A stretch of DNA of 64,000 nucleotides from Convolutriloba macropyga. Taxonomy: Eukaryota. Both the position numbers and the translations under genes were made by a program. The notes under the pieces were generated by a model, which saw nothing but the letters and a program-made list of their open reading frames with translations, made no database searches and had not been told where the DNA came from. Numbering within the stretch: position 1 is the stretch's first letter; every line of letters begins with the position of its first letter. The stretch lies in contig NC_134476.1 in assembly GCF_964194025.1 (NCBI RefSeq), positions 4,092,001-4,156,000 of the forward strand, written 5' to 3'. Shown here piece by piece: positions 49,046-63,162 of this stretch.

Positions 49046-50129
49046 TATACGTTTTTCCTGTCTCTAATTGAAAGATTTTTTGTTTCTATTTCGCCAAGCC
49101 TTTTTTGTTTATTTTTACCATGAATTCAAATTCTCACTTGGAATGAATGTTGTTTTGCAGTTTTTTCAAGTTGACCGTTTCTTTGATTAAGTTGCTAGAG
49201 TAACTATAGGTACCATATGATCTAAAAAGATACGTACAGCATGATTGAATACTTGGAGAAATTGTACATTTAGAGAAAGTGTCAAAAATGTGGAGCGAAA
49301 ACGACGCAAATGCCGTTAGAATCTTGCATAAATTTTATACAAACCTTGTACTAGTCATCTAGTACGCTCAGAGCGTAATGGTGTGCTAATAGAGAACTGA
49401 TCTGAGCTCAAAATGTTAGTTGTTTTATGTTATGTTTCCGAAGCTTTTTGAAAAAATTCTCTACGTGTACTTTTTATGGTACCATAATGTACAATAGTGA
49501 GAAAGATGTATTTGTCTGTCCGAATTGGCAAGACAAGATGAAGTGGAAATAGCCGAGACTAGTCGATAAGGCATTAAAAGTAGTCGCCTAACGATTTTTC
49601 AAAACGAGTTCGAAGCTTAAAATATTTTCCCTTTTTCCCTTGACTATCAACCATTTGAAACAAAAAGTCAGACAACTAAAAAGTTTTCAGATTTAATGAA
49701 GCATTTTTGACAAAAGCTCTTTTTGTACTGGTGATCGCTTCTATCTAGCTTTGTATTAACAAGCATTACACGCAAATTTTACTTAACCACAGCCCAGAAT
49801 TTCGGTATTTGAATCAAAACTGTTAGAATTCATTCTTTTTACTAAGTACACTTGGCGATTTGTCCCAATCCGTTCAATTTATTGTTAAGTTTTTTATGGT
49901 AATCACTCTTAGTGTAGCTAGGTTTTGGTTAATTTTACTGAAGGAGATATGATCAACTGAGTATGATGTGATCAAATATCACTAAATGAAAGTTTTATCA
50001 AGACAGCTAAGTAGTATATAGAGGGACCGAGCTGCCCGGGGGGGGGGGGGGGGGGGGTGACGACCCACATGTATTAAGATTGGTTATAGCAATTGTAACT
50101 TATTTAGGTCATCTTTGAATTAGTGAGAC

Positions 50130-50400
50130 AATGTATAAAGATAGGTAATAGATTTTACAAGTATTAACATTAGAGTTATTGGAACAACGTATAAAGATAG
50201 GTTATAGATTTTACATGTATTAAGATTTGATTTTTGACAGTAATGTATAAAGATAGGTAATAGATTTTACATGTATTAACATTAGAGTTAAGAGAACAAC
50301 CTATAAAGATATGTAATAGATTTTACATGTAATAAGATTGGATTTTTGACAATAATGTTTAAAGATAGGTAATCGATTTTACATGTATCAGGATTGATTA
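50130..50400 (+). repeat. Subterminal 56-bp tandem array (5 units, alternating A/B halves)
   Basis: Core TATAAAGATAGGTAATAGATTTTACATGTATTAA starts at 50134, 50190, 50246, 50302 and 50358. Confidence 0.9.
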
Positions 50401-51450
50401 CATATTACCAATTTGCTAATGAATCATCGATACTTGTAATATTGACATTTGTTATCTAACTGTAGGCGAACATAAATAGAGATTATTTCTAACTATGTCT
50501 TAGCGTTGAGTACATTATCTGATTGATATTCTACATTGTTATATTGAACCAATGTACGAAGATAGCTAATAGGTTACAAGTAACTGGAGTAGTACTTGGC
50601 ACACGTAATATGACTGATAAAGACAACCAGTCTTCTAGTCGCTGATGAGTCATCAAATCTTGTTATAACATGTTAAGATTTTCAACTGTGGTTATTATTG
50701 TGTATCATATCTGGTTATGGTGGGATAGGAAAATGGTATAAAAACGCCCTAATTATAGATATTATTAGGCATTAAGACTCTTGGTTTAACTAGTTCAAGA
50801 AATTCAATTTCCTCGTACTTACAATTAATGACGTCAATTTAAATTTTGGGTCCCTAGCAGCACATGAAAAGAGGAAAATATCATATCGATAGGATGATTC
50901 CTTTTGCTAACAGAAAATCAAATTAGGCAATCTGAACTCTGGGGCAACGAGAAGTAAATTGAATCAGAGCAGACTTCTAAAGGTTCGGCAAGATCATAGT
51001 TTATAATTGATTTCCTTAAAAGGAAGTTTCGTGCATCTAGCCAGAAAATAATGCTAAAAAGGAAACGGGAAAGATGCTTGTCCAATCAGATTGCTAGAGC
51101 AAAATGTTAAGATTTCCGAGAATGTTCCAGGTTACGGTTACTGTTTATCAGCGGGAAAGTGTTGAATAACAAAGAAGCTTATTCATTATCTAGGGTTTAC
51201 ACCGAACTCTCCCAAGAATTTGAGGAATCTGCTTAGAAAGAACTATGCTAGCTCAACTCCGAAAAGAAGACTAAAATTATGCTGAAAATCTGCTGTTATT
51301 TCTATCTATTAGTTTCAACGAAAACAACGACTGGGACTAATTATACAATACACTTACTAGGTTGACAGATTAATATCACAATCTTATCAAGTGTTCAAAA
51401 GAGATTAATTTAGATAGATTAAAAGTTCTGGAAGCAAATAGATTGTCAGT

Positions 51451-54400
51451 TTAGATCAGTAAAGGTTTTGTGTGAATTCCATCTCTATCCACAATTCGTT
51501 TCGGGTAGAAATATGAAAGTCACCTTTTAGTCTGTTCATAGGTGAAAACCCGATGATTTACGGTTTTGAACCCTCTGTTAGTTGAGGATACATTTACTGC
51601 ATCATTCAGGACTCTTCTGTACTTCTGTAACGGTCCATTACTGTTTTCTTCCAGAACATTCTTGTTGAGTCCTTTGCTGCTGAACTTAGTTTTGTTCGTT
51701 AATGAATTATAACAGCAATATGTCTTGCTACATAAACATAGCATTTCGGTACACCGAAACTCCTCCTTGAATAAACCAGGTTCACGCTTGTCATGCTTCA
51801 CATGTTCATGACAGCAAGTTCTTGGAAAAAAATTGCACGTACTGTCGGCGCGAAAAGTTTCTGTACAGTCATCTCTTCTTATCTCGTTCCAAATGCTTCT
51901 CATTTCGGGTCGAATGCAGTCATATAGATTTTCATGAGCCAGCGCCAGATACAAGGAATCGGTGTCCATTTCAAGCTCTTCAAATTTCTGAACATCACAG
52001 AACTTGTCAAAAAAGTTATAGTAAAGCTCCAACATTCTCAATTTTGCGTACTGCAAGATGAAAAATCCCACAATTATCGGCTCACGATGTTCAACAGTAC
52101 TCTTCACTAGCTCAACCTCATATATACCTCTCCCGACATTGTTCAATCTCCTGAAAAGACGGTTATTGATAGCTTTGTGAGTATTTTCATCGCTGAGATA
52201 AAGTGTTTGCGTATGTCGGCTTCGATCCATGATCTGATAACCATAAGAGCTATTTCCAAGTAATTTCATAGTTTCAGCAACAACGCTAGAGTCCGGATTT
52301 TCATCACCTTCTCGTCTTGCATCAACGACAGATTGTACGAAACCGTTGAAACATTTTTGCGGGGTATACTCAACGAATCTGTGGATTTTGGTACAGCGTA
52401 GACCCAGCTTCAAATAAAACTTTAATAATGGCGTTATGACTATTCCATTGTTTAAATTGTAACTCGAAATCAACATTCGTTGTGGTTTTAACAATAACGC
52501 GTTTTTTTCAGCATATTCCAGCATGAATTTACCAATATTCTCTCTTCCAACATCACAGTTTTTGAAAATTGGAGGAAAGTTTGCAAATCGTTCACGAAGC
52601 TCCTCGGGAACTTCTAAATGGCATTGAACATATCCGAATGATTTATCTTCGTGTATCCGCGTCAACAGCGTCTCACTGCTCAAAGGTATCTTGTAGGGAA
52701 AATTTTTTTGAACATGATCTTTCAAAATAGAGCTCTTCTGAACCTGATCCCACCATTCACATTCTCTCATCTCAACAATTTTATATCCTTTCTTTTCCAG
52801 ATGAAGTCTTCGTAAGATATCAGACTCACGCTTCCGGATACCATTTTCAAATTCGTCTTTATCAAGAATTGGTTGAGTTTCTCTACAGGGACAGAAGTGG
52901 TAGTAGCGTCCGAGAGCTTCAAAAATTGTTTGACAATGACCACAAAAGCCATCCAATCCACACTAAAGGAATCAATTTTTTTCTGTTTTCCAGTTGTATA
53001 GATACTTTCAATAGTACATTCGGGTCTGTTTGCTTGATAGAAAGACATTACCATGTTCTCAAACTTCCTGATTTTGTTTTGACGAGCTTTGAACTTTTGA
53101 AGATTGGTATCAAACTCCCATCTAGTGTAGAGTCCAGTTGGCATCGCTTGACACATGGAGAAAGGATATAATTGGCTAGCATCTATTCCAACTATTGTTT
53201 TACAGACATTGTTTGACCTCCGGATGAATGTTTCGTCTGCAACAGCTTTCCTCGTAAACACTATTGATGGACCACCAGTCATTTCACTTCGTATTTTCTC
53301 ATGCAAGTCCTTGTCAGCTTCGATGAAAGGGTAAAACTTTCTATCCATCGATTTATGAAGACAGATATTTGCTAAATTGGGTAGCGTGCACCCGAGCTTT
53401 AACATGTCAACTTTCTGACCATGATAAAACTCCATCATTTTCACCATTGCCTTCAACGTTGGTACAACATCTTTGTTATTATACCAACGAAGGAAATCTC
53501 GAAAAGTTTTCATTTTCTCCATCTTCCACAAATCTTCTAGGAGAGCATAGTTTTCTATTCCAGTTCTAGGCTTTTCTTTCAGTCCCATTTCCCGGAGAAC
53601 TACCGACTGCTCTTTTCCAGATTGAATCAACTTTTCGAACTGATTGAAATCTTTTTCCAGTGGATTCAAGTTTTTCAGTGCTGAAGAAGGAATCGTAAGG
53701 TGGAAGATGGCTACAGTCAAGTTTCGATGGCGAATCAAACCATTCATATGGGAAATAACCTTTTGTTTCTTTCGATTGATATGCTTTCAGAAAGGAGTCC
53801 AGAGTTGTTGCTCCACCGAGAAAATTTACAATATCCAGAAATTGAATATCCCCAAATTTGAAGGAGATGAACTGATTTGTCTTCTTGATTACCGTAGGTG
53901 TAATAGCTTTGTCGTTAAGGAGATGAGGAATGAGATAGCTTTTGATCAAATTCAGATCATACTTACCACTGTTGAATCCAAAAACTGGTAGAGTGTCAAC
54001 ATAATTATTGAAATGACACTGGAGATCAAGGAGCTGCTTTTGTTGGTATCGTAAAAATTTTTTAGAAGCATTACTATCTTCTGCTTTGATACTATTTTCC
54101 AACTGACTTTCGGAAATAATCTCCAGTCTAGAGGAAATATCACTCAACCTGGTTTCGATCTCAGCTTCCACCTCCAAGAACTTGGGTCTCAAGTCCGCTT
54201 TGTTTTTTGCTGATAAGGTTTCAAGTTGCGCTACAAACGATATGATGAGACGATTGGGATCCTTTTCGCATAAGAAAATTGGTTCTTTCAACAGATTTGA
54301 AGAAATTGATACCTATACAGGTACATGAGTACCAATCCACGATGTTGTAGCTGTGTTACTGATATCCACTGAATGAACACATATTGCTTCGAAGTCGAAG

Positions 54401-55788
54401 ACGGCTAAATTATTGAAGACGGTATAATCTTCTGGATACGCGATTGAGAAGTTGTCAAGCTTCTCAAATAGTGTTTCCCGCAAAGAATAAAGACCTCGCG
54501 GATAGACATTTTTCACTCGTTCTTTACAAGTTTTCAAGTGACGGTTGAAATGACCTGAATGGTTGAAAAAGACATCACAGCTGGGACAACGAAACTTCTT
54601 GAAGAATTTATTGATATCATTAACATAACATATATGGTTGTTGTATCGAAGCAGTTTAATGTTTTCGTCATATCGTTCAACGCTGCGTCGAACAAGTTCA
54701 CCAATAATTTCACCGTCTTCAATGTCAAAATCATAGATGAAAATGTTTTGTTTGATTAGTTCTTCAATTATTGGAATTTGATCAAAGGAAACACCTGTGA
54801 AACTTTCAGGGTCGCAATCACTTGCAGTAACAAAACTGTGAAAAATTTTTGTTGCATTTGGTTCAACATCTACTGATCCACATAAATGAATAGCAATTGC
54901 ACGGAATAAACACAAATTATCGTTATATGGTTCATTGTGTCCATTTGAAACGAGACAATTTACTTCAGGATTCCTTAACAATGGCTCTGGAAGAGGAGAA
55001 TCAGTACAACCCATAGGTATATTCGTAAGAAGCGCTACAAAAACGGTAACATTTGTAATTACTGTGAATCGCCATTTTGAGTTTTGACGTTCTTTTGTAC
55101 ATGTTTCAATCAAGTCAAGTTTCTCAATTTCGTTCTGCAGGTTCAATAAATCGTTTTTATTGCTTAGCAGAGAAGCTCGATCCAGGAGTAAGTTATTTTC
55201 ATGCGGATAATAATATCGGTATTCGTTTGTCTCTACATTTTGCAAAATAAACCCCAATGCGAGGTTAACTTTTGCTGCACATTTCAGGTTTGCAAAAACT
55301 TGATCGAGTTTTTCATTGATCTTTTTGGTGTCCAAATTCGATAAACTGAAGCTGAAAACTTCCTGTCTGCCATGCTCAGAATGCATATCGTCAAGTAAAT
55401 GCTGACACGCTGCTAGTTCTTCTTTCAGTGACTCGCTATCGTTATCAACTTTCTCCATAATCTCACGAACACGGATTGTGCTTGAGGACCCAATTTTTGT
55501 GCTAGCTTGATGTACTTTTCTGCGATGAAGTTGAAGTGAGTAGAAACTTGGGAACTGTTTCTGACAGACAACACACTTGTTCAGTGTATTACGAACTTTT
55601 GCTCCGTGAGCCTTCGCAATATGGTATGACAATTCTGCAGAATTTTTTGTAGCAAAATTACAATTCCTTTTCTTACAGTAAAGCGTGCCCATCATACATG
55701 TCTTCCGGTGGCGAGCAATATTGTATTTTGCAATAGATTTTGCACATTTTTCACAGTTAACGGGTAGGTTTCGATCTTTTGCAGGCAT
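51451..55788 (-). pseudogene. Protein-primed family B DNA polymerase (pPolB) with N-terminal C2H2 fingers, vOTU-like region and Vsr-like insert; four lesions
   Basis: ExoI VFDFE, ExoII FNSGKYD, ExoIII YNNKDV, motif A DASQLYP, motif B KLLGNSSYG, motif C MDTDS. Lesions: TAG at 54313-54315, frameshift near 53680, TGGAT duplication near 52955, TGA at 51520-51522 (the frame continues LSYFYPKRIV...GIHTKPLLI* to 51451). Confidence 0.93.
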
Positions 55789-56388
55789 TTCGTTATAACT
55801 GGGTGAGTTAACTATGGAATGAGCAAAGAGATTTTTTATTTTTGTAAGGAATTGTCAACTGAGCCGTAAAATATGAATAAACAAATGTCTCTCAAGTTCT
55901 GCAGAAATTCAAGGTGTATTCATGACTACATACGAACAATGAAGTTGAAATTTGTTTGTTACTAAAAATAGATTTTATTTCGAGTCGTCAACCAATCACA
56001 GCAAAGTTTGCAAAACTTCGGGAAATTGCGACAGCCATTATTCGTGTACACAACTTCGACAACCCTGATTTGTTTACTTAATGTCTAGACAGAATTTGTT
56101 CACAAGCAATGAAAACAACCAAAGTTTACCACAGGTTTAAGATCGTAGAACTTCGGGAAAATGAGACAGCTTTGATTTGTTTGCGGAGCTTCGGAAAAAC
56201 CAGACAGCCTTGATTTGTTTACTTAATGTCTAGACAGAATTTGTTTACAAGCAATTAAAATAACGAAAAGTTTAATGAATTTTCATCTTAGAACGACCTT
56301 GAAAATTTGTTTACACAGTGTTCTCAACTAAAACCCACTAATTCATAGAGGTAAATCATCATTTGTTCACTCAGTTTACTCTCTTACT
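55789..56388. promoter_or_regulatory. Putative bidirectional promoter between pPolB and the divergent ORF
   Basis: Divergent ATGs; direct repeat of about 50 bp at 56066-56118 and 56211-56263; TGTTTAC at 56071, 56216, 56242 and 56308. Confidence 0.55.
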
Positions 56389-57018
56389 ATGGTTGAAGCT
56401 ATGTACGAAAACAGTCCCGAATACTTCAAAAAGTTTCAAAAACGATTCAAATACACTATTTGCGACACAGAACCAAAACTACAAGATTCTGGAATAGAAA
56501 ATTATGCGTACGGTTATCATTCATCTTCGACCGTTATTGATGGTTGTTCCTTTGGTTCCAGCCATTGGCATCTTATTTTTGAGGATACAAGTTTAGAAGA
56601 TAAAAATGTTTTTTCTCCGTATGCTTCTGTGCCGATACCTTGTCTCGTGACCTGTTTCAAATTTCTTATTTTGCCTACTGAGAAAAACTTTGTTACTCGT
56701 GGTGCTATTGTTTCTCGCTTACATGTCGCTGTGGAGTATTTATCAAAGTTTAATCATGTTTCAACCAACAAAACTAAAAAACAACTTCCTTTGCCCAATC
56801 CTGTGAAAAAACTCTCAACCATTACTACAACTTCTAACAAACATGCTTCTACTATCCCCGATGTAACTATAAAACGATTTTGTCAACTAATGCATGGTGA
56901 ACATTCATCTTCTCTCTATCAGATTATGGATATTCTTTTGAGTGGACAAGGGAGTTTTGTACGTGAGACTTCAGACTATTTAATGAACTTCCAGTTCTGT
57001 AAAAATTCTAGTGTCTAA
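56389..57018 (+). CDS. Polinton accessory protein, 209 aa, with HUH-like motifs (hypothetical)
   Basis: Intact ATG-to-TAA ORF; YAYGYH...SSHWHLIFE and VEYLSK. The ORF is well supported; the function is speculative. Confidence 0.65.
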   Translation: MVEAMYENSPEYFKKFQKRFKYTICDTEPKLQDSGIENYAYGYHSSSTVIDGCSFGSSHWHLIFEDTSLEDKNVFSPYASVPIPCLVTCFKFLILPTEKNFVTRGAIVSRLHVAVEYLSKFNHVSTNKTKKQLPLPNPVKKLSTITTTSNKHASTIPDVTIKRFCQLMHGEHSSSLYQIMDILLSGQGSFVRETSDYLMNFQFCKNSSV

Positions 57019-57051
57019 ACTTAAGCTGTCATAGAAAAATTTAATTCAATT

Positions 57052-57508
57052 TTACTCCATATGTTTTACAAATGCTAGCAATTGCAATTCATTTACATCT
57101 GGTACAAAAGGAAATTTACTGCTATAAAAAATAGTGCGCAATATAGATGCAAAATAAACCACACAGTTGTGAGTCTGCTGATTGCAGGGGGGATTGAATA
57201 TCTCTTCTGTGCTCCATAACATCCGTCATCATATGCAAATCAGTACATTGCTGTAAACGGGAGAAAACATCTTTGTAGGCAGTCAGAGGTAGTGCTAACG
57301 GATCTGCAAAGTATAGTACGGGGTATGCGTAGCGTTTGGCAAGCATCACCCAATGCGTTCCAAAAGAATCAGCTCGTGATGCGTTTACAATTATAAAACT
57401 GTTAACAGGTAAATTTAATGGATAATTGTCAGCGGCATAAACACCTCGAAATTTGTATTTGAGATGCTTGCACTTTTGAACTTGAATATAAATTTGATCT
57501 TCGTCCAT
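57052..57508 (-). CDS. Adenain-like maturation cysteine protease (PRO), probable C-terminal frameshift
   Basis: Catalytic H (GTHWV), D (FADPL), Q (LQS) and C (LCGLFC). Removing one T from the run near 57127 extends the ORF by YSSKFPFVPDVNELQLLAFVKHME* to 57052. Confidence 0.88.
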
Positions 57509-58818
57509 TAGTATGCGTTCATAGGCAGAATATTTTTGGATACGTTTCTTGCAGAGTCAATATACACCGTAGATGATTTTTCACCGAGGAAGAAAACTTT
57601 AACGTTGTTTGTTAAAGCTGTATCAAATTTTAGCTCGACCGATATAGACGAATTTGTTAGTTCAGGATGAATAAAATCATGTGTGGCTTCTTGCATACTA
57701 GTCAGGTCGAAAACCATTATAAAATGGTTCGAAAATTCACTCAATGGTATTCCATGACCGTTTTCTACATAGGCTAATGCGCTCATTGAATTGTAGTACA
57801 AACGCTTGTTGTCAATTGTTGACATTGGTGTACCGGCTGTAGCGAAACCGTTTCGGAACACTGTGATCTCACGCAGCCCAAATTTTCGATAGTTGAAGGG
57901 ATTTACTGTGTTAGTTCCAATGAAAGCATCACCAGCACACAATGCAATTATAAGTCGTCTTATGGGTTCTTTTGTAAAAATATCTTCGTGCTTCCAACTT
58001 TGCTGCCCCGTTGTTGCAAGAAAAGTTTTTGTTATCACTTCATTGTATCGATATATTGCAGGTGTTCTCAAAAGTGTTTTCTCAATGGCTCCGACTACGT
58101 TGTCTGATACAGTCATCTTTCTAACAAAAAGATTGGCTTCGTCAATTTTTACTTTGTAGTTTTTGCCAGCTGCTTCACTTATAGTGGCAAAATCATCTTG
58201 TGACCTTCGGAAAGAAATTCTCAGGGTAACTCCGCTTACTAATTGTTTTTCGCACGAGAAAAAATCAACAGCTAGTTTTCCATAAAGAGTAATTTGAGCT
58301 GATTCTCTCGCAGCCTGCTTTCTTACATCTTTTAATGCATTAGCAATAGCGCTAGGGTTTGCTTCATACTCATAACCTTGACACTTTAACCAAGTCTTCT
58401 TTGCATCTGTCCCGTGCGAGAATTCTGTTTCTATGAAACTTTTGTGAGCATAGTGTCCATTGGCAGAAGAGATTTTTATTCCATTTGCAGAAACAGTACA
58501 GTCAGCAAATAGGGAATGAAGGACATTATTCACAAAAAATGCGGCATCAGTATTAGCGGGATCACCTGCGTCATATCGTAAATCAGTTCCATCGACATTT
58601 TGTATTCGACATTTTACTTCCAAATAAATTTTCTGCAAATCTATGAAATTGTTGCGATCGCCTACAACTTCAAATTCGAGCGATGATCCAGAGGGAGAAT
58701 AAAGTGGTCCAGTTTTTTGCCCAAATGATTGATCAAAGGTGACTAGCAAAGGTGGTTTTTCAAATAAATCCAAGGAACTGTGAGTGGCTTCGGAAGGTAT
58801 TACAATATTAGTTCGCAT
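57508..58818 (-). CDS. Polinton major capsid protein (double jelly-roll), about 436 aa
   Basis: SSLDLF, SLEFEV..FIDLQKIYLEVKCRI, NNVLHSLF, NPFNY, FDLT; lies upstream of PRO; likely start MRTNIV at 58818. Confidence 0.9.
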   Translation of the reverse strand: MRTNIVIPSEATHSSLDLFEKPPLLVTFDQSFGQKTGPLYSPSGSSLEFEVVGDRNNFIDLQKIYLEVKCRIQNVDGTDLRYDAGDPANTDAAFFVNNVLHSLFADCTVSANGIKISSANGHYAHKSFIETEFSHGTDAKKTWLKCQGYEYEANPSAIANALKDVRKQAARESAQITLYGKLAVDFFSCEKQLVSGVTLRISFRRSQDDFATISEAAGKNYKVKIDEANLFVRKMTVSDNVVGAIEKTLLRTPAIYRYNEVITKTFLATTGQQSWKHEDIFTKEPIRRLIIALCAGDAFIGTNTVNPFNYRKFGLREITVFRNGFATAGTPMSTIDNKRLYYNSMSALAYVENGHGIPLSEFSNHFIMVFDLTSMQEATHDFIHPELTNSSISVELKFDTALTNNVKVFFLGEKSSTVYIDSARNVSKNILPMNAY

Positions 58819-59144
58819 TTTTGACACGAGAGAAAAAATCCAGTCGACTTCTTCTTGGCTGTGGTTTTCGAGAAATGATTTTTTTAGTGAAACGTTTCTT
58901 GTAGGTTCGAGGTTTAGCAAAGTGTTGTCTTCGACGTTTAATAACTTGCCGGCCTCGTGTTATGCGTGAATGGAGAGAACCACCAAATTGTTTTCGGGCT
59001 GTTTTTGCAACCGTGCTTTTCAACGCCTGCTTTGCCGACTTTCGTTTCGTTGCTACTTCAACCAACTCAGGTGCACTCTGCACTAAAAGCTCTCGGCCAA
59101 TTCTTTCGGCAGCGGGCCATATAATTCTCCTTGCCAATGGTAAA
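58808..59144 (-). pseudogene. Basic core (pVII-like) protein, 5' end removed by LTR insertion
   Basis: PLARRII.PAA.RIGRELL amphipathic helix, QFGGS, Arg/Lys-rich tail; lies upstream of the capsid gene. The ORF portion above 59144 is LTR sequence. Confidence 0.7.
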
Positions 59145-60119
59145 TGTTGCGGCTGCTCAAGAATCTCAGCGGAACCCAACTTCGCGGCCTGGTTCTCGAG
59201 TTTTACGCCGGCCTGGTTCTTCACTCGGTTGCTATCGACTAACACTCGCGTAGTAACTATTAGTCGCTCAGTTGTAATAAAGGACTGTAACTTTAATTTT
59301 TCGTGATTGAAGTTAAGAAAATCCTTGGTGATAATCTATATCCAATCTCGTGCTGAAGTTTGTAAGGCTTCAGGCCAAAGCTAGTACTGTTGCTAACTTC
59401 TTGTTAAGAAAGCTCAACTAACTTATAGCGCTCGAGATCTTAAGATCTAGCAAAACTTAGCGCAAAAGACTAAAGTTGATGAAGAATCAAATTATAGTCA
59501 ATCTGAGAGCCAACTGCTCCTTATGACAGTTTCTAATGGTTCTAAATACAATATGGTTACACTATTCAGACAATTGGGTTAAAGTAAATAATCTGCTAAA
59601 TATCATCATTGTCACTGATTGGTTAATCGAATAAAGTGATTTAAGTCAATGTTTACATAGTAAATGTCAAATTACCGCACTATTTGCTTTTGTTGACATA
59701 AGCACGGATGGTTATTACGTAGCTCTAAATGCCTCAAATGCACGGTATTTGACCTTTAATGATCATCTAAAGTATCATAAAATAAACAACTTAAGAAATT
59801 TAGCAATAAATGACAAAATATCAAAAAATGCCAATTTTGCACCATATAAGTGCTAATAGCCACACTTGTGGGTCTGATGCAATAATGTTCGTTGGGTCCA
59901 TGAATAGCTTAGAGGTAACCCTAACCGTCTGCCATAACCTCGGGTTGCTCGGGTTTTGGCTTCCCAAAATCGGGGGGGTGTACAGATTTTCGGTCCCAAC
60001 TTGTAAAATTTTTCATTTTTGACCATTTTTGAGTTTTGGCAAAATTTCAAGTTTCTGAGTTTTGATTTCATTTCTGTTGGTCTGATGGCTCATGCTTCTG
60101 TTCACTAGTGGCGCCAACA
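59145..60119 (-). repeat. 3' LTR (975 bp) of the BEL/Pao element
   Basis: Minus strand TGTTG...CAACA termini, immediately after the PPT-like GAAAACAGGGCCGGCGA. Confidence 0.8.
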
Positions 60120-61737
60120 TCGCCGGCCCTGTTTTCGATCTCGGAAACACCATCGTAGAAGACTGGCGCCAATTTCACCACCGGCCTGTTGAATTCGCCA
60201 TGTGCCATCTTGACTCTCGCTGATCGTACGACTCCATCGTTGCCTTTGAAGACTTGGATGACTCGTCCCATTTTGTACTCACATCGTTTCACTGACTCGT
60301 CTACCATCCAAACAAGTTCTCCTTCTTTCAGGTTTCTCACATCTTCCTTTGACCACTTTGACCTCTGATTCCATTGTGGAAGATATTCACGAGTCCATCT
60401 CTTCCAGATCATGTCCTCATATGCTTGAGCCGTTTTGAATGATTTTCTGAGATCATGGTAGCGTTCACTGGATGGCATAAATGGTGCACTTGCGTTTTCT
60501 CGTCCTAGCAGGAAGTGATTGGGTGTAAGAGCTGTCAAATCCTCTGGATCGTCACTTACTGCTGTCAGGGGTCTTGCGTTGAGAGTTTGCTCCACAAGAC
60601 ACATCGTTGTACTGAGTACCTCGGCTGTGAGGCTTCGGTTGTCCAAGATTGCAATCATCACTTTCTTGCAACTTTGAACCAGTCTTTCCCAGATTCCACC
60701 AAAGTGTGGCGCTCCAGGAGGGTTGAATTTCCAAACTATCTTTTTCTGAGCTAAGTCACTTTCAATCTTAGCTTTGTCCCATACGTCCATGAATGCTTTG
60801 AGTTCCTTGGCTGCTCCAACGAAGTTCGTGCCGTTGTCGCTGATGATGGTACTTGGGTAGCCACGTCGTGCGATGAATCTTGTCACTGCCGCTAGACATG
60901 ACTCGGTGTCCAATGACTGTGCAACTTCGATGTGTACTGCTCTGGTTGTCAGACAAGTGAAGAGGCAGCACCATCTCTTCAATGTACGTCGTAGGAACTT
61001 CACTTCTATGGGTCCGAAGTAGTCGACTCCGGTATGGGTGAATGGGAAAACATGTTCATCAAGTCGTTCTCGTGGTAGGTCCCCCATCGGTGGGTGGATT
61101 GGGTTGGCGTTCCTGTGTCTGCATTTGATGCATCTGGACTTGATTTTTCGTAACGCATTTCGTATTCCAATGATCCAGTATTCTTGTTGGAGCATGTTTC
61201 TCACGTATTCTGTGCCTTCGTGTAGGTTGTCACGATGAGCTCTCTCCAACAGAAGTTGTACTACTGGATGCTTTGCTGTCAACAGTATTGGATGTTTTGC
61301 ATTGTAATCGAGGTTTGAATGCTTCAGTCGACCTTTCACTCGAATTGTTCCATCTTCCTCTATGAAGGGTGACAATTTGGCGATGTTCAATGTTTTTGAG
61401 ATTTCCTTGCTGTTTGTTATCGACTTCGAAACATTCGGGAAGCTTTCGGCTTGAACAAATCGCAACAGAATTTGTTCTGCTCCATGGATCTCCTCAGCTT
61501 TGAGAAGTCCCTTCTGCTTCGTCTTGAACCTCATGCAGTAGGCAATAAAGTTTCTGATTCTATTGAAGCTGCTGTATCGGTCCCAAACAAATGGTTGATG
61601 TAGTTTAGTTTCTGCGGCTACAGTACTTGTAGCTTGCTCAGCTTCAATTTTGTTCGCTTGGCACCACGGCTTTGGCCATTTTTCTTCATCTGTGTGGAGC
61701 CATGCCGGCCCGTTTAACCACACGGATTCCTTGAGGC
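59145..61737 (-). mobile_element. BEL/Pao LTR retrotransposon, 3' part (intact integrase reading frame 60068-61737), cut by the gap
   Basis: W.NGPAWL, RVKGRL, HPILL, HHCC finger, GVDYFGP, SDNGTNFVG, PHFGGIWERLV, LTPNHFL, W.RW..EYL, RPVVKLAP. Confidence 0.93.
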
Positions 61738-61937
61738 NNNNNNNNNNNNNNNNNNNNNNNNNNNNNNNNNNNNNNNNNNNNNNNNNNNNNNNNNNNNNNN
61801 NNNNNNNNNNNNNNNNNNNNNNNNNNNNNNNNNNNNNNNNNNNNNNNNNNNNNNNNNNNNNNNNNNNNNNNNNNNNNNNNNNNNNNNNNNNNNNNNNNNN
61901 NNNNNNNNNNNNNNNNNNNNNNNNNNNNNNNNNNNNN
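61738..61937. other. Assembly gap (200 N)
   Basis: Run of N; the round size suggests an arbitrary scaffolding spacer. Confidence 0.98.
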
Positions 61938-62197
61938 ACTGAACCCGATGACATTATTAGTAGTATAAGTAAATGACTAGTAGCACACCACGGGGGGGTC
62001 ACGCACGGTAAAAAACGACCCCCTCTAAATCTCTACATTTCGCCAATAAATTTCTTCAGAAAAGCCCTTGGGCGCGATGGGACAATATATGAAGAGAAAA
62101 TCAGAACATGAGTTTGGAAAAATTGTCTAGCAAGATCATTTTTCAAATTACAGTTCCAGAAAACAGACGTTAAGTAAAAATCGATAAAACTGTTTCA

Positions 62198-62476
62198 ATG
62201 AGTACCCGAGTTACGAGAGACGAAATTGATGGGGGTATTACAAACTTGGTTTTTGATGATGGAAACCGAGAGAGACCTCCATGGCGTTGCTGTTCCAATA
62301 CCGTAGTCCCTCGATCAGAGATTATATTTTTCGTTCAAGTGAGTATTATCGTGCTCATGATTAGTCTCTGTTTTGCCATGCTATTCTTGATATCGGAGAG
62401 CTGCGAAGAGAAATCAATTTGGATTGCACTGCTTTCGAGTCTAGTTGGTTATATCTTACCAAATCCTAAATTATGA
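62198..62476 (+). CDS. Small two-TM membrane protein of the Polinton
   Basis: Hydrophobic segments IIFFVQVSIIVLMISLCFAMLFLI and IWIALLSSLVGYIL; ATGA overlap with the ATPase. Confidence 0.75.
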   Translation: MSTRVTRDEIDGGITNLVFDDGNRERPPWRCCSNTVVPRSEIIFFVQVSIIVLMISLCFAMLFLISESCEEKSIWIALLSSLVGYILPNPKL

Positions 62477-63162
62477 ATAAAGTCATTCTCACAAACGATA
62501 GGATCTTCATGGCGGTTGTAGGCCCAAGTGGTTCTGGGAAAACTGACCTCATATTCAGCATGCTGCAAGGTCGGTCCTTCTACCCAGCATTTCCCAAAAT
62601 TTATTACTTCTACAAAGAGTTCCAGGACATATTTACAGCTATGCAACAAAAAATACCGCACATTGAGTTCATCAAGTATTCCGGATTGGATATAACGAAA
62701 AAGCTTTCGGACTGTCTGCTCGTTTATGATGACTCATGCGAGGAAATCTTTAACGACAAAGAGTTTGTGAAGATAGCAACGTCAGGAAGACACAGAAAAC
62801 TTCATGTGATCTACGTCAAACACAACCTATTCCAACAGAGTAAATGGTCGCGAACAATTGATCTAAACACAACTCATATAGTTTTATTCAAATCATTGCG
62901 TGACATTCAACAAATAGAATACCTCGGAAAACAGTTAAACTGTCTCCAATTACTCAAGGACGCATACAAATTAGCAACAGCTCAACCCTATGGACATTTG
63001 ATCATTGACCTGGATCCTAAAACAAGTCAAGGCTTACGATTTTCTTCTCAACTCATTGGTCCCGAACCATCAGTATTCTATATTCCTTCGGAGGAAGCTG
63101 TTATTACACCAATTACGAATGAAAAAGAGACATTTGCTTATGCTGAAGCGTTGGTGCGTTAA
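62473..63162 (+). CDS. A32/FtsK-like genome packaging ATPase
   Basis: Walker A GPSGSGKT, Walker B LLVYDD, GRH, downstream HNLF and PYGHLIIDL. Confidence 0.92.
   Translation: MNKVILTNDRIFMAVVGPSGSGKTDLIFSMLQGRSFYPAFPKIYYFYKEFQDIFTAMQQKIPHIEFIKYSGLDITKKLSDCLLVYDDSCEEIFNDKEFVKIATSGRHRKLHVIYVKHNLFQQSKWSRTIDLNTTHIVLFKSLRDIQQIEYLGKQLNCLQLLKDAYKLATAQPYGHLIIDLDPKTSQGLRFSSQLIGPEPSVFYIPSEEAVITPITNEKETFAYAEALVR

Follow-up and report, generated by a model that had tools for sequence, protein, structure and literature searches.

The open reading frame (ORF) at positions 56389..57018 (+ strand) of the analysed stretch of 64,000 nucleotides (hereafter, the window) runs from ATG to TAA and codes for a 209-aa protein (P0001). 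The ORF and its family are real and conserved, and its N-terminal part (residues 15-121, positions 56431..56751) is predicted to be an HUH Rep-type domain that has no conserved catalytic tyrosine. Judged from the structural model, homology to HUH Reps is very probable. What the domain does is a more tentative matter: the reading that we favour, though we hold it at somewhat less than even confidence, is that it is a disarmed HUH domain, locked by zinc and unable to cut, which binds single-stranded DNA (ssDNA) in protein-primed replication.

The host element is a Polinton, since it combines pPolB, a capsid candidate, an A32 ATPase, an adenain protease and an AGTAGT end with an array. The family B polymerase (51520..55788, − strand) lies in four reading-frame pieces; we take it to be pPolB from polymerase motifs that we recognised, and one piece matched DNA_pol_B_2 (E 0.0018, below the cut-off). 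The A32-like packaging ATPase (62473..63162, + strand; Pox_A32, E 2.5e-5) and a shortened adenain-type cysteine protease that is convergent with the ORF (57122..57508, − strand; Peptidase_C5, 27 bits against a cut-off of 21.3) both score above the Pfam cut-offs. A 436-aa ORF (57508..58818, − strand), in which Pfam found no match, is by its position the probable major capsid protein. The probable element end (50010..50409) begins with AGTAGT at 50010, presumably the Polinton end motif, and one such end was seen. The 14 kb of the element that follow are inside the window; the other end and the integrase are outside. The organism that carries the element is probably an animal. At the probable terminus, a run of ~21 G is followed by a 56-nt tandem array (50128-50409, ~5 copies). 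Contig depth over 50000-50320 is about tenfold above that of the next kilobase, as expected if subfamilies share only the very end of the element.

The ORF is located head-to-head with pPolB, as an earlier note on this DNA had stated; the two starts are 600 nt apart, that of pPolB being at 55788 (− strand). Both neighbours described there as broken are indeed so: pPolB is divided into its four pieces, and the protease ORF (57122-57508) spans only profile positions 13-112 of 179. The same note remarked that the ORF is intact beside broken neighbours; this is no sign of selection on this copy. At 4 breaks per ~6.8 kb of neighbouring genes (with the protease length assumed), the probability of finding no break in 630 nt is 0.69. 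Since chance alone gives ~0.7, and since 51 of 120 close homologues among the matches listed are near full length (195-230 aa), the intactness of the ORF is unremarkable, and the evidence of function is the family-wide conservation pattern rather than the state of this copy.

Contigs from four runs of one study cover the whole stretch in many variants, and pieces of diverged contigs bridge the junctions between pPolB and the spacer, the spacer and the ORF, and the ORF and the protease. Thus, a relative with 88/157 residues identical to the ORF protein (P0140) begins in sequence matching 55510-55924, and one from the second subfamily (P0119) reads through into 57035-57124. The order pPolB-ORF-protease is therefore confirmed in other, diverged copies, and the Polinton link holds for the close subfamilies. 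It is limited to these, because the sole distant locus obtained, L001 (3.8 kb), codes for a 203-aa homologue, possibly followed in tandem by a paralogue, and contains no Polinton gene. No relatives were found in viral contigs (queried with alignments A4, A5, A6, A7 and A1, the capsid candidate and the ATPase), in metagenome contigs (query P0146), in prokaryote genomes or in phage and plasmid records.

A phmmer search with the ORF protein retrieved 150 proteins at E<=0.01, and the matches listed include two close subfamilies (~80-98% and 60-68% identity), whose clusters number up to 344 members. When 1.84 billion representatives were searched with a profile, 150 matched at E<=0.001, many of them over a full length of ~200 aa, and a second, word-based search round gave 283. 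The family thus consists of ~200-aa proteins with identity down to ~20-37%. No useful names or Pfam domains were found among the relatives; Pfam returned no consistent family for the ORF and all 86 members of alignment A3, PDB sequence and profile searches retrieved nothing significant, and the best scores in the ESM Atlas were under 0.9 and serve as leads only. No helicase-fused form was seen: there was no homologue of 444-2000 aa among 4,571 candidates, weak evidence as far as the whole family is concerned, on which the family seems to be stand-alone. Pfam found no P-loop domain in the 209-aa ORF.

Conservation was counted on A3, whose 86 relatives were selected for coverage of the N-domain, using those 69 rows that are less than 60% identical to one another. 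In these rows three histidines (H44, 63/67; H59, 64/68; H61, 66/69), two cysteines (C53, 63/67; C85, 67/69) and a glycine (G105, 65/66) are nearly invariant, and of the 65 rows in which none of the five His and Cys positions is a gap, 54 keep the whole set. Conservation of H44, H59 and H61 was what the earlier note had proposed to check in an orthologue alignment. At the two other positions that it had named for this check, Tyr occupies position 92 in 10/69 rows, and position 117 has Tyr in 42/67 rows with Phe replacing it in 15/67. In the motif I region F20 is kept in 55/65 rows and position 22 is aromatic (Phe in 31 and Tyr in 29 of 65); the motif I threonine is not conserved.

The AlphaFold model made from A3 (pLDDT 86.1, pTM 0.63) has N-domain strands at residues 20-25, 39-44, 59-65, ~78-82 and 98-104 and helices at 86-94 and 106-121; strands 1 and 2, and likewise strands 3 and 4, are connected in it without a helix. 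The HUH fold proposed in the earlier note is borne out at the level of prediction, with a five-stranded antiparallel Rep fold and Rep domains at the top of the fold search. HUH Rep domains took all of the first 8 places among 48,161 solved chains, with Z 4.9-6.2 and rmsd 3.1-3.9 over 82-88 aligned residues. They were headed by a nanovirus Rep (Z 6.2, rmsd 3.1, 83 residues aligned), with circovirus, vientovirus and pMV158 RepB domains next (Z 4.9-5.5). Further fold matches were to papillomavirus E1, smacovirus, AAV5, SV40, SIRV1 ORF119 and geminivirus proteins, and the best unrelated row had Z 4.6. In a second structural look, the first 21 entries were all of the Rep fold. The first rows of Foldseek were RepB in the PDB and parvovirus NS1 among viral models, neither of them significant (no E<=0.001). 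The scores are middling, and a Z under 8 can, as the tool warns, reflect a common arrangement; at the sequence level, Pfam and PDB profile searches revealed no link to Reps and hhalign gave a probability of 8%. Our confidence in homology comes from the consistency of the ranking and from the presence of the motifs in the right strands.

The shallow alignment A1 yielded only a poor model (pLDDT 37), whose glyoxalase-like matches (Z<=3.5) were set aside as artefacts. Readings of the ORF protein as a deaminase (HxE..PCxxC) or a HIT protein (HxHxH) do not fit in spacing, and the fold matches favour Reps.

The motifs quoted in the earlier note are correctly placed (FKYTI at 20-24, H44 in YAYGYH, H59-W-H61-LIF, PCLVTCFKFL at 84-93 and YLSK at 117-120); it had missed the conservation of C53 and C85, the family linker TQT and the conserved C-terminal domain. 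On the model, the H-U-H of motif II is on strand 3 and a third ligand ends strand 2. The HxH is above chance, because of the conservation of H59 and H61 and their place on the central strand of the predicted Rep fold. RepB binds Mn through H39, D42, H55 and H57 (PMC5030251), and the H44/H59/H61 triad, which the earlier note had pointed out, is real and mirrors H39/H55/H57. In RepB the histidine at the end of strand 2 is 16 residues before HYHVL; the H44-H59 spacing is 15 here and 11-19 in the family (59 rows), and HYHVL is also the commonest HUH motif of the family (19/69). The loop of residues 41-60 is modelled at pLDDT 92-95. From conservation and the RepB parallel, we infer that H44, C53, H59 and H61 (56518..56571, + strand) bind a metal, likely zinc. 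The second conserved cysteine, C85, is at the start of helix 86-94 (56641..56670, + strand), in which F92 lies near the usual position of the tyrosine.

In Reps the catalytic tyrosine is in the helix that follows strand 4, and by our own count from 10.1101/2020.09.01.278671 it stands 7 (WDV) to 9 (PCV2) residues past the end of the strand-4 motif. The end of the range superposed on PCV2 points to ~93-94 if ungapped. From spacing and superposition ranges, the tyrosine site should correspond to about residues 91-94, so that F92 is, as the earlier note had it, roughly at the usual position. The ORF protein contains no tyrosine in residues 79-116, and thus none in helix 86-94. In the 69 rows, position 92 is L in 18, F in 12, Y in 10, H in 6 and other residues in the rest, and Tyr is scattered on the tree (3 rows of a 44-row tree, 3 changes). 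Positions 87 (Y36/F16/L9/V5) and 90 (F50/Y14) look, as far as the alignment goes, like structural aromatics. With this inferred register, the ORF protein has no motif III, the YxxK/H that active Reps carry in the helix behind strand 4, and YxxK/H inside the equivalent helix occurs in 3/69 rows only. Position 95 is variable, and there is no conserved general base. An active nickase using Y117, as suggested earlier, is not supported: this residue belongs not to the catalytic helix but to the one that follows strand 5, at the margin of the superposition on RepB (residues 18-115 against 6-132). K120 is kept in 16/65 rows and Y117xx[KH] in 14/69.

The helix by which RepB, AAV5 Rep and E1 recognise double-stranded DNA (dsDNA) is remote from their active site (PMC9943647). 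In the model of the ORF protein, strands 3 and 4 are joined not by this recognition helix but by a turn of only 3 residues (69-71, with pLDDT 72-87 there), and the H61-C85 segment is variable, 16-31 residues long and about neutral family-wide. An origin-binding domain of the E1/RepB type, the second option of the earlier note, is therefore disfavoured by the model. In CRESS Reps, ssDNA is held in a cleft that motif I and strand 4 form on the same side as the active site (10.1101/2020.09.01.278671). That face is conserved here and is accompanied by basic residues (K14, K18, K21, R110, K130-132, R163); the N-domain overall is not basic (12 K/R, 14 D/E). Since there is no conserved tyrosine, the recognition helix is absent, and neither a helicase fusion nor, in the element portion inside the window, a rolling-circle origin was found, it is likely, on the modelled structure, that the ORF protein is no classical nickase and no origin-binding domain of the E1 type either.

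The divergent intergenic region (55789..56388) contains 55-66 nt direct repeats, four copies of TTTGTTTAC and three AACTTCGGRAAA-like copies. The 90 nt immediately before the ORF include no ATAAAC box. It could be the target of a sequence-specific regulator, in which a dimeric disarmed HUH domain binds promoter or terminal repeats to govern the transcription of early genes or loading at the origin, by analogy with the origin-binding domains of E1 and large T and with iteron binding by Reps. We regard this as unlikely, if deserving of serious weight. The head-to-head arrangement, the intergenic repeats (the four TTTGTTTAC copies fall within 250 nt) and the E1 and SV40 domains among the fold matches (Z 3.5-4.3) are what such a protein would lead one to expect. 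However, the model lacks the dsDNA recognition helix, TTTGTTTAC fits a host Forkhead site, and the words that the divergent promoter shares with the terminus, or with the sequence upstream in L001, are no more numerous than in shuffles. The comparison with the terminus also lends no support to the action on the terminal array that had been proposed. Four of the window's six TTTGTTTAC copies, together with AACTTCGGRAAA-like words, are at 56004-56314 of the divergent promoter; if they are, as we assume, Forkhead-like sites, they suggest control of early genes by a host factor.

The metal site can also be read as that of an enzyme. A His triad holding a metal could act without tyrosine, with a conserved cysteine or a metal-bound water attacking the phosphodiester, and such an enzyme might, for instance, free or trim terminal-protein-bound ends before integration, or cut ssDNA or RNA. 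Five near-invariant His and Cys residues at ~20-37% identity are a pattern expected of an enzyme, C85 caps the former catalytic helix, and the full metal triad is kept, whereas none of the three motifs survives in the HUH domains that are known to be inactivated (PMC6668415). Against this, C85 should be some two helical turns away from the usual position of the nucleophile, no general base is conserved (position 95 being the variable one), and sets of cysteines and histidines usually form structural zinc sites. Overall, we consider a tyrosine-independent metal enzyme unlikely. Its boldest form, a new HUH branch with a His3/Cys2 centre and a Cys or water nucleophile that cuts or releases terminal-protein-capped Polinton ends, is distinctly improbable; if true, tyrosine-independent cutting would link protein-primed replication to integration.

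Beyond the N-domain, the protein is predicted to contain a basic, low-confidence linker (residues 122-156; 56752..56856, + strand) and, from conservation and the model, a helix-helix-strand-strand domain (residues 157-205; 56857..57003, + strand). The latter is conserved in the family (R163 47/53, D181 40/48, G186 44/48, G188 45/46). No clear match to its fold was found, the search with the whole model giving only weak rows (YefM, Z 2.7-2.8), and it probably serves oligomerisation or dimerisation. [TSV]QT is present in the linkers of 31/48 relatives (TQT in 20/48) and absent from 5,588 N-domain residues. LC8 binds TQT in disordered regions, and TQT alone is not sufficient (PMC6607443). As a sequence pattern, the family linker [TSV]QT may thus be an LC8-type anchor; the ORF protein and its own subfamily have no such motif in the linker. 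One subfamily has an extra C-terminal CxCxxC (P0174, P0188, P0195, P0212, P0213, P0235 and L001 993-1604), likely, to judge by its sequence, a second metal site.

The linker motif raises a role away from nucleic acids, with the zinc-stabilised domain as a scaffold that acts through LC8 and the C-terminal domain in trafficking, assembly or host modulation. The restriction of [TSV]QT to linkers, the near-neutral N-domain and the presence of the gene in L001 without replication genes are all compatible with it. The insufficiency of TQT for binding, its lack in the ORF protein's own subfamily, and the conserved basic and aromatic residues and adjacency to pPolB, which suit a DNA role, make it rather improbable.

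Finally, Y117 (or, in some relatives, Y87/Y92) might be the nucleophile of a classical nickase that initiates rolling-circle or rolling-hairpin replication next to pPolB. This is hardly credible: it has for it the intact HUH motif with its third His, Y117-x-x-K in the ORF protein and Tyr at 87 in 36/69 relatives, and against it the misplaced and Phe-replaced Y117, the tyrosine-free stretch of residues 79-116, the want of a helicase-fused longer form (a weak point), the 14-kb element portion, which, though other nick sites exist, contains no CRESS-type nonanucleotide above chance (no TAATATTAC or TAGTATTAC; NANTATTAC 2 times against 4.6 expected), and the divergent promoter with no special hairpin (z 0.57).

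For the favoured ssDNA-binding domain, the following course of events can be envisaged. A Polinton lineage would have captured a stand-alone rep nuclease domain, whose catalytic tyrosine would then have been lost because protein priming needs no nick. A cysteine of the strand 2-3 loop (C53, possibly together with C85) would have replaced the acidic ligand of RepB, and this Cys ligand would have turned a catalytic Mn/Mg site into a closed structural zinc site. The old ssDNA cleft, with its conserved aromatics and K14, K18, K21, R110 and K130-132, would hold the displaced strand or the single-stranded ends of the element. Dimerisation may occur via the C-terminal domain, aided in most relatives by host LC8 on the linker TQT, and the ORF protein would be co-expressed with pPolB from their shared divergent promoter. 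Its role would be akin to that of the adenovirus or tectivirus SSB/DBP accessory, with descent from a rolling-circle initiator.

This account draws on the Rep-fold ranks, the triad, the lack of the tyrosine and of the dsDNA helix, the preserved ssDNA face and the linkage to pPolB and protease in diverged copies. It is also in line with the finding that the SSBs of protein-primed replicons are diverse and unrelated (10.1101/2021.03.25.437074). Weighing against it are the middling Z, the lack of a sequence-level Rep link, the N-domain that is not basic, and the five conserved ligands, of which tetrahedral zinc needs one fewer; their conservation is equally enzyme-like. In addition, L001 has no Polinton genes, the ORF protein's own subfamily has no TQT, and the known context is that of close relatives.

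Among known systems, the RepB origin-binding domain of pMV158 (Rep_2 type; PDB 3DKX, 8AMU) resembles the predicted fold (Z 5.2-5.6, 85-89 residues aligned) and shares the His that ends strand 2, HYHVL, a candidate for a fourth ligand between strands 2 and 3, and a separate C-terminal domain with no helicase. Unlike RepB, the ORF protein has no equivalent of Tyr99, has Cys for Asp42 and a second conserved Cys, lacks helices alpha1 and alpha2 of dsDNA recognition, and belongs to a eukaryotic, linear, protein-primed host element. The nuclease domains of CRESS Reps (nanovirus 6H8O, gemini- and circovirus) gave the best structural scores (Z 5.0-6.2) and agree in the compact five-strand domain and the motif order I-II-(III). 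In them, however, the third ligand is Glu rather than His, and YxxK and an SF3 helicase are present; no nonanucleotide hairpin origin such as theirs was found in the 14-kb element portion in the window. Papillomavirus E1 and polyomavirus large T, enzymes turned binders with an HUH fold and no catalytic Tyr (Z 3.5-4.3), have lost all three HUH motifs, read dsDNA and are fused to a helicase (PMC6668415). The present family, in contrast, keeps and extends the metal site, has no recognition helix and is stand-alone. Overall, the predicted structure has the HUH Rep fold, lacks the catalytic motif of these enzymes and is unlike known disarmed HUH domains.

In being a small stand-alone HUH gene of a mid-size dsDNA virus or element, the ORF resembles the HUH endonucleases of Mriyaviruses and related PLVs and SIRV1 ORF119 (2X3G, Z 3.6). 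The Mriyavirus enzymes keep motif III and are predicted to be active, in genomes with no DNA polymerase (PMC11253617). In a PLV survey, HUH is named for Mriyavirus-like groups and goes unmentioned in the text on Maverick-Polintons (10.64898/2026.06.19.733378). The bidnavirus parallel drawn in the earlier note is not supported, as NS1 there keeps the opposite half, the helicase, and has lost the endonuclease domain (PMC4061559). Adenovirus DBP, PRD1 P12/P19 and the SSBs of Bam35 and phi29 would be analogous in the proposed role only, displaced-strand binding; their folds are unrelated, and none was among the structural matches listed. Adenovirus DBP also binds zinc.

To our knowledge, an ssDNA-binding accessory has not yet been assigned in Polintons, and if the favoured ssDNA-binding reading is true, the family supplies the accessory that protein-primed strand displacement needs. 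Passages of PMC11161782, PMC11071296, PMC11296320 and PMC5714925 name no HUH gene in animal Polintons, and full-text searches of the literature, exclusive of figures, supplements and most subscription papers, yielded no report of an HUH-fold gene there. A conserved unnamed gene family gains a predicted fold, and a Polinton appears to carry a domain of the rolling-circle world that has been remodelled rather than decayed: the nucleophile and the dsDNA helix are gone and the metal site has gained cysteines, while the known disarmed HUH domains of E1 and large T changed in the opposite direction. As the protein is small and intact, its metal content, DNA preference and cleavage are directly testable.

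Several minor observations accompany these results. In L001, a 237-aa ORF (1979-2692, + strand) follows the homologue in tandem and has, by eye, a similar layout (NYALG, RH..CC..HYHLLV, then QVG and a helix); its similarity to the family is weak (hhalign 14%, E 0.00045 with one sequence; BLASTP E 0.1), and from its sequence it is possibly a diverged paralogue. The L001 contig has CA-rich repeats at both ends. The capsid candidate is preceded by a stop-to-stop open frame of 175 codons (58811-59335, − strand), for which Pfam gave nothing above chance and which is possibly a gene for a basic core protein. The pPolB region at 52700-52960 (− strand) contains what we take to be a VSR-like nuclease insertion (FCGHC..EALGRYYHFCPC..KIVEMRECEW), and 60068-61954 (− strand), around a 200-base N gap (61738-61937), is presumably a BEL/Pao retrotransposon integrase-like ORF inside the Polinton.
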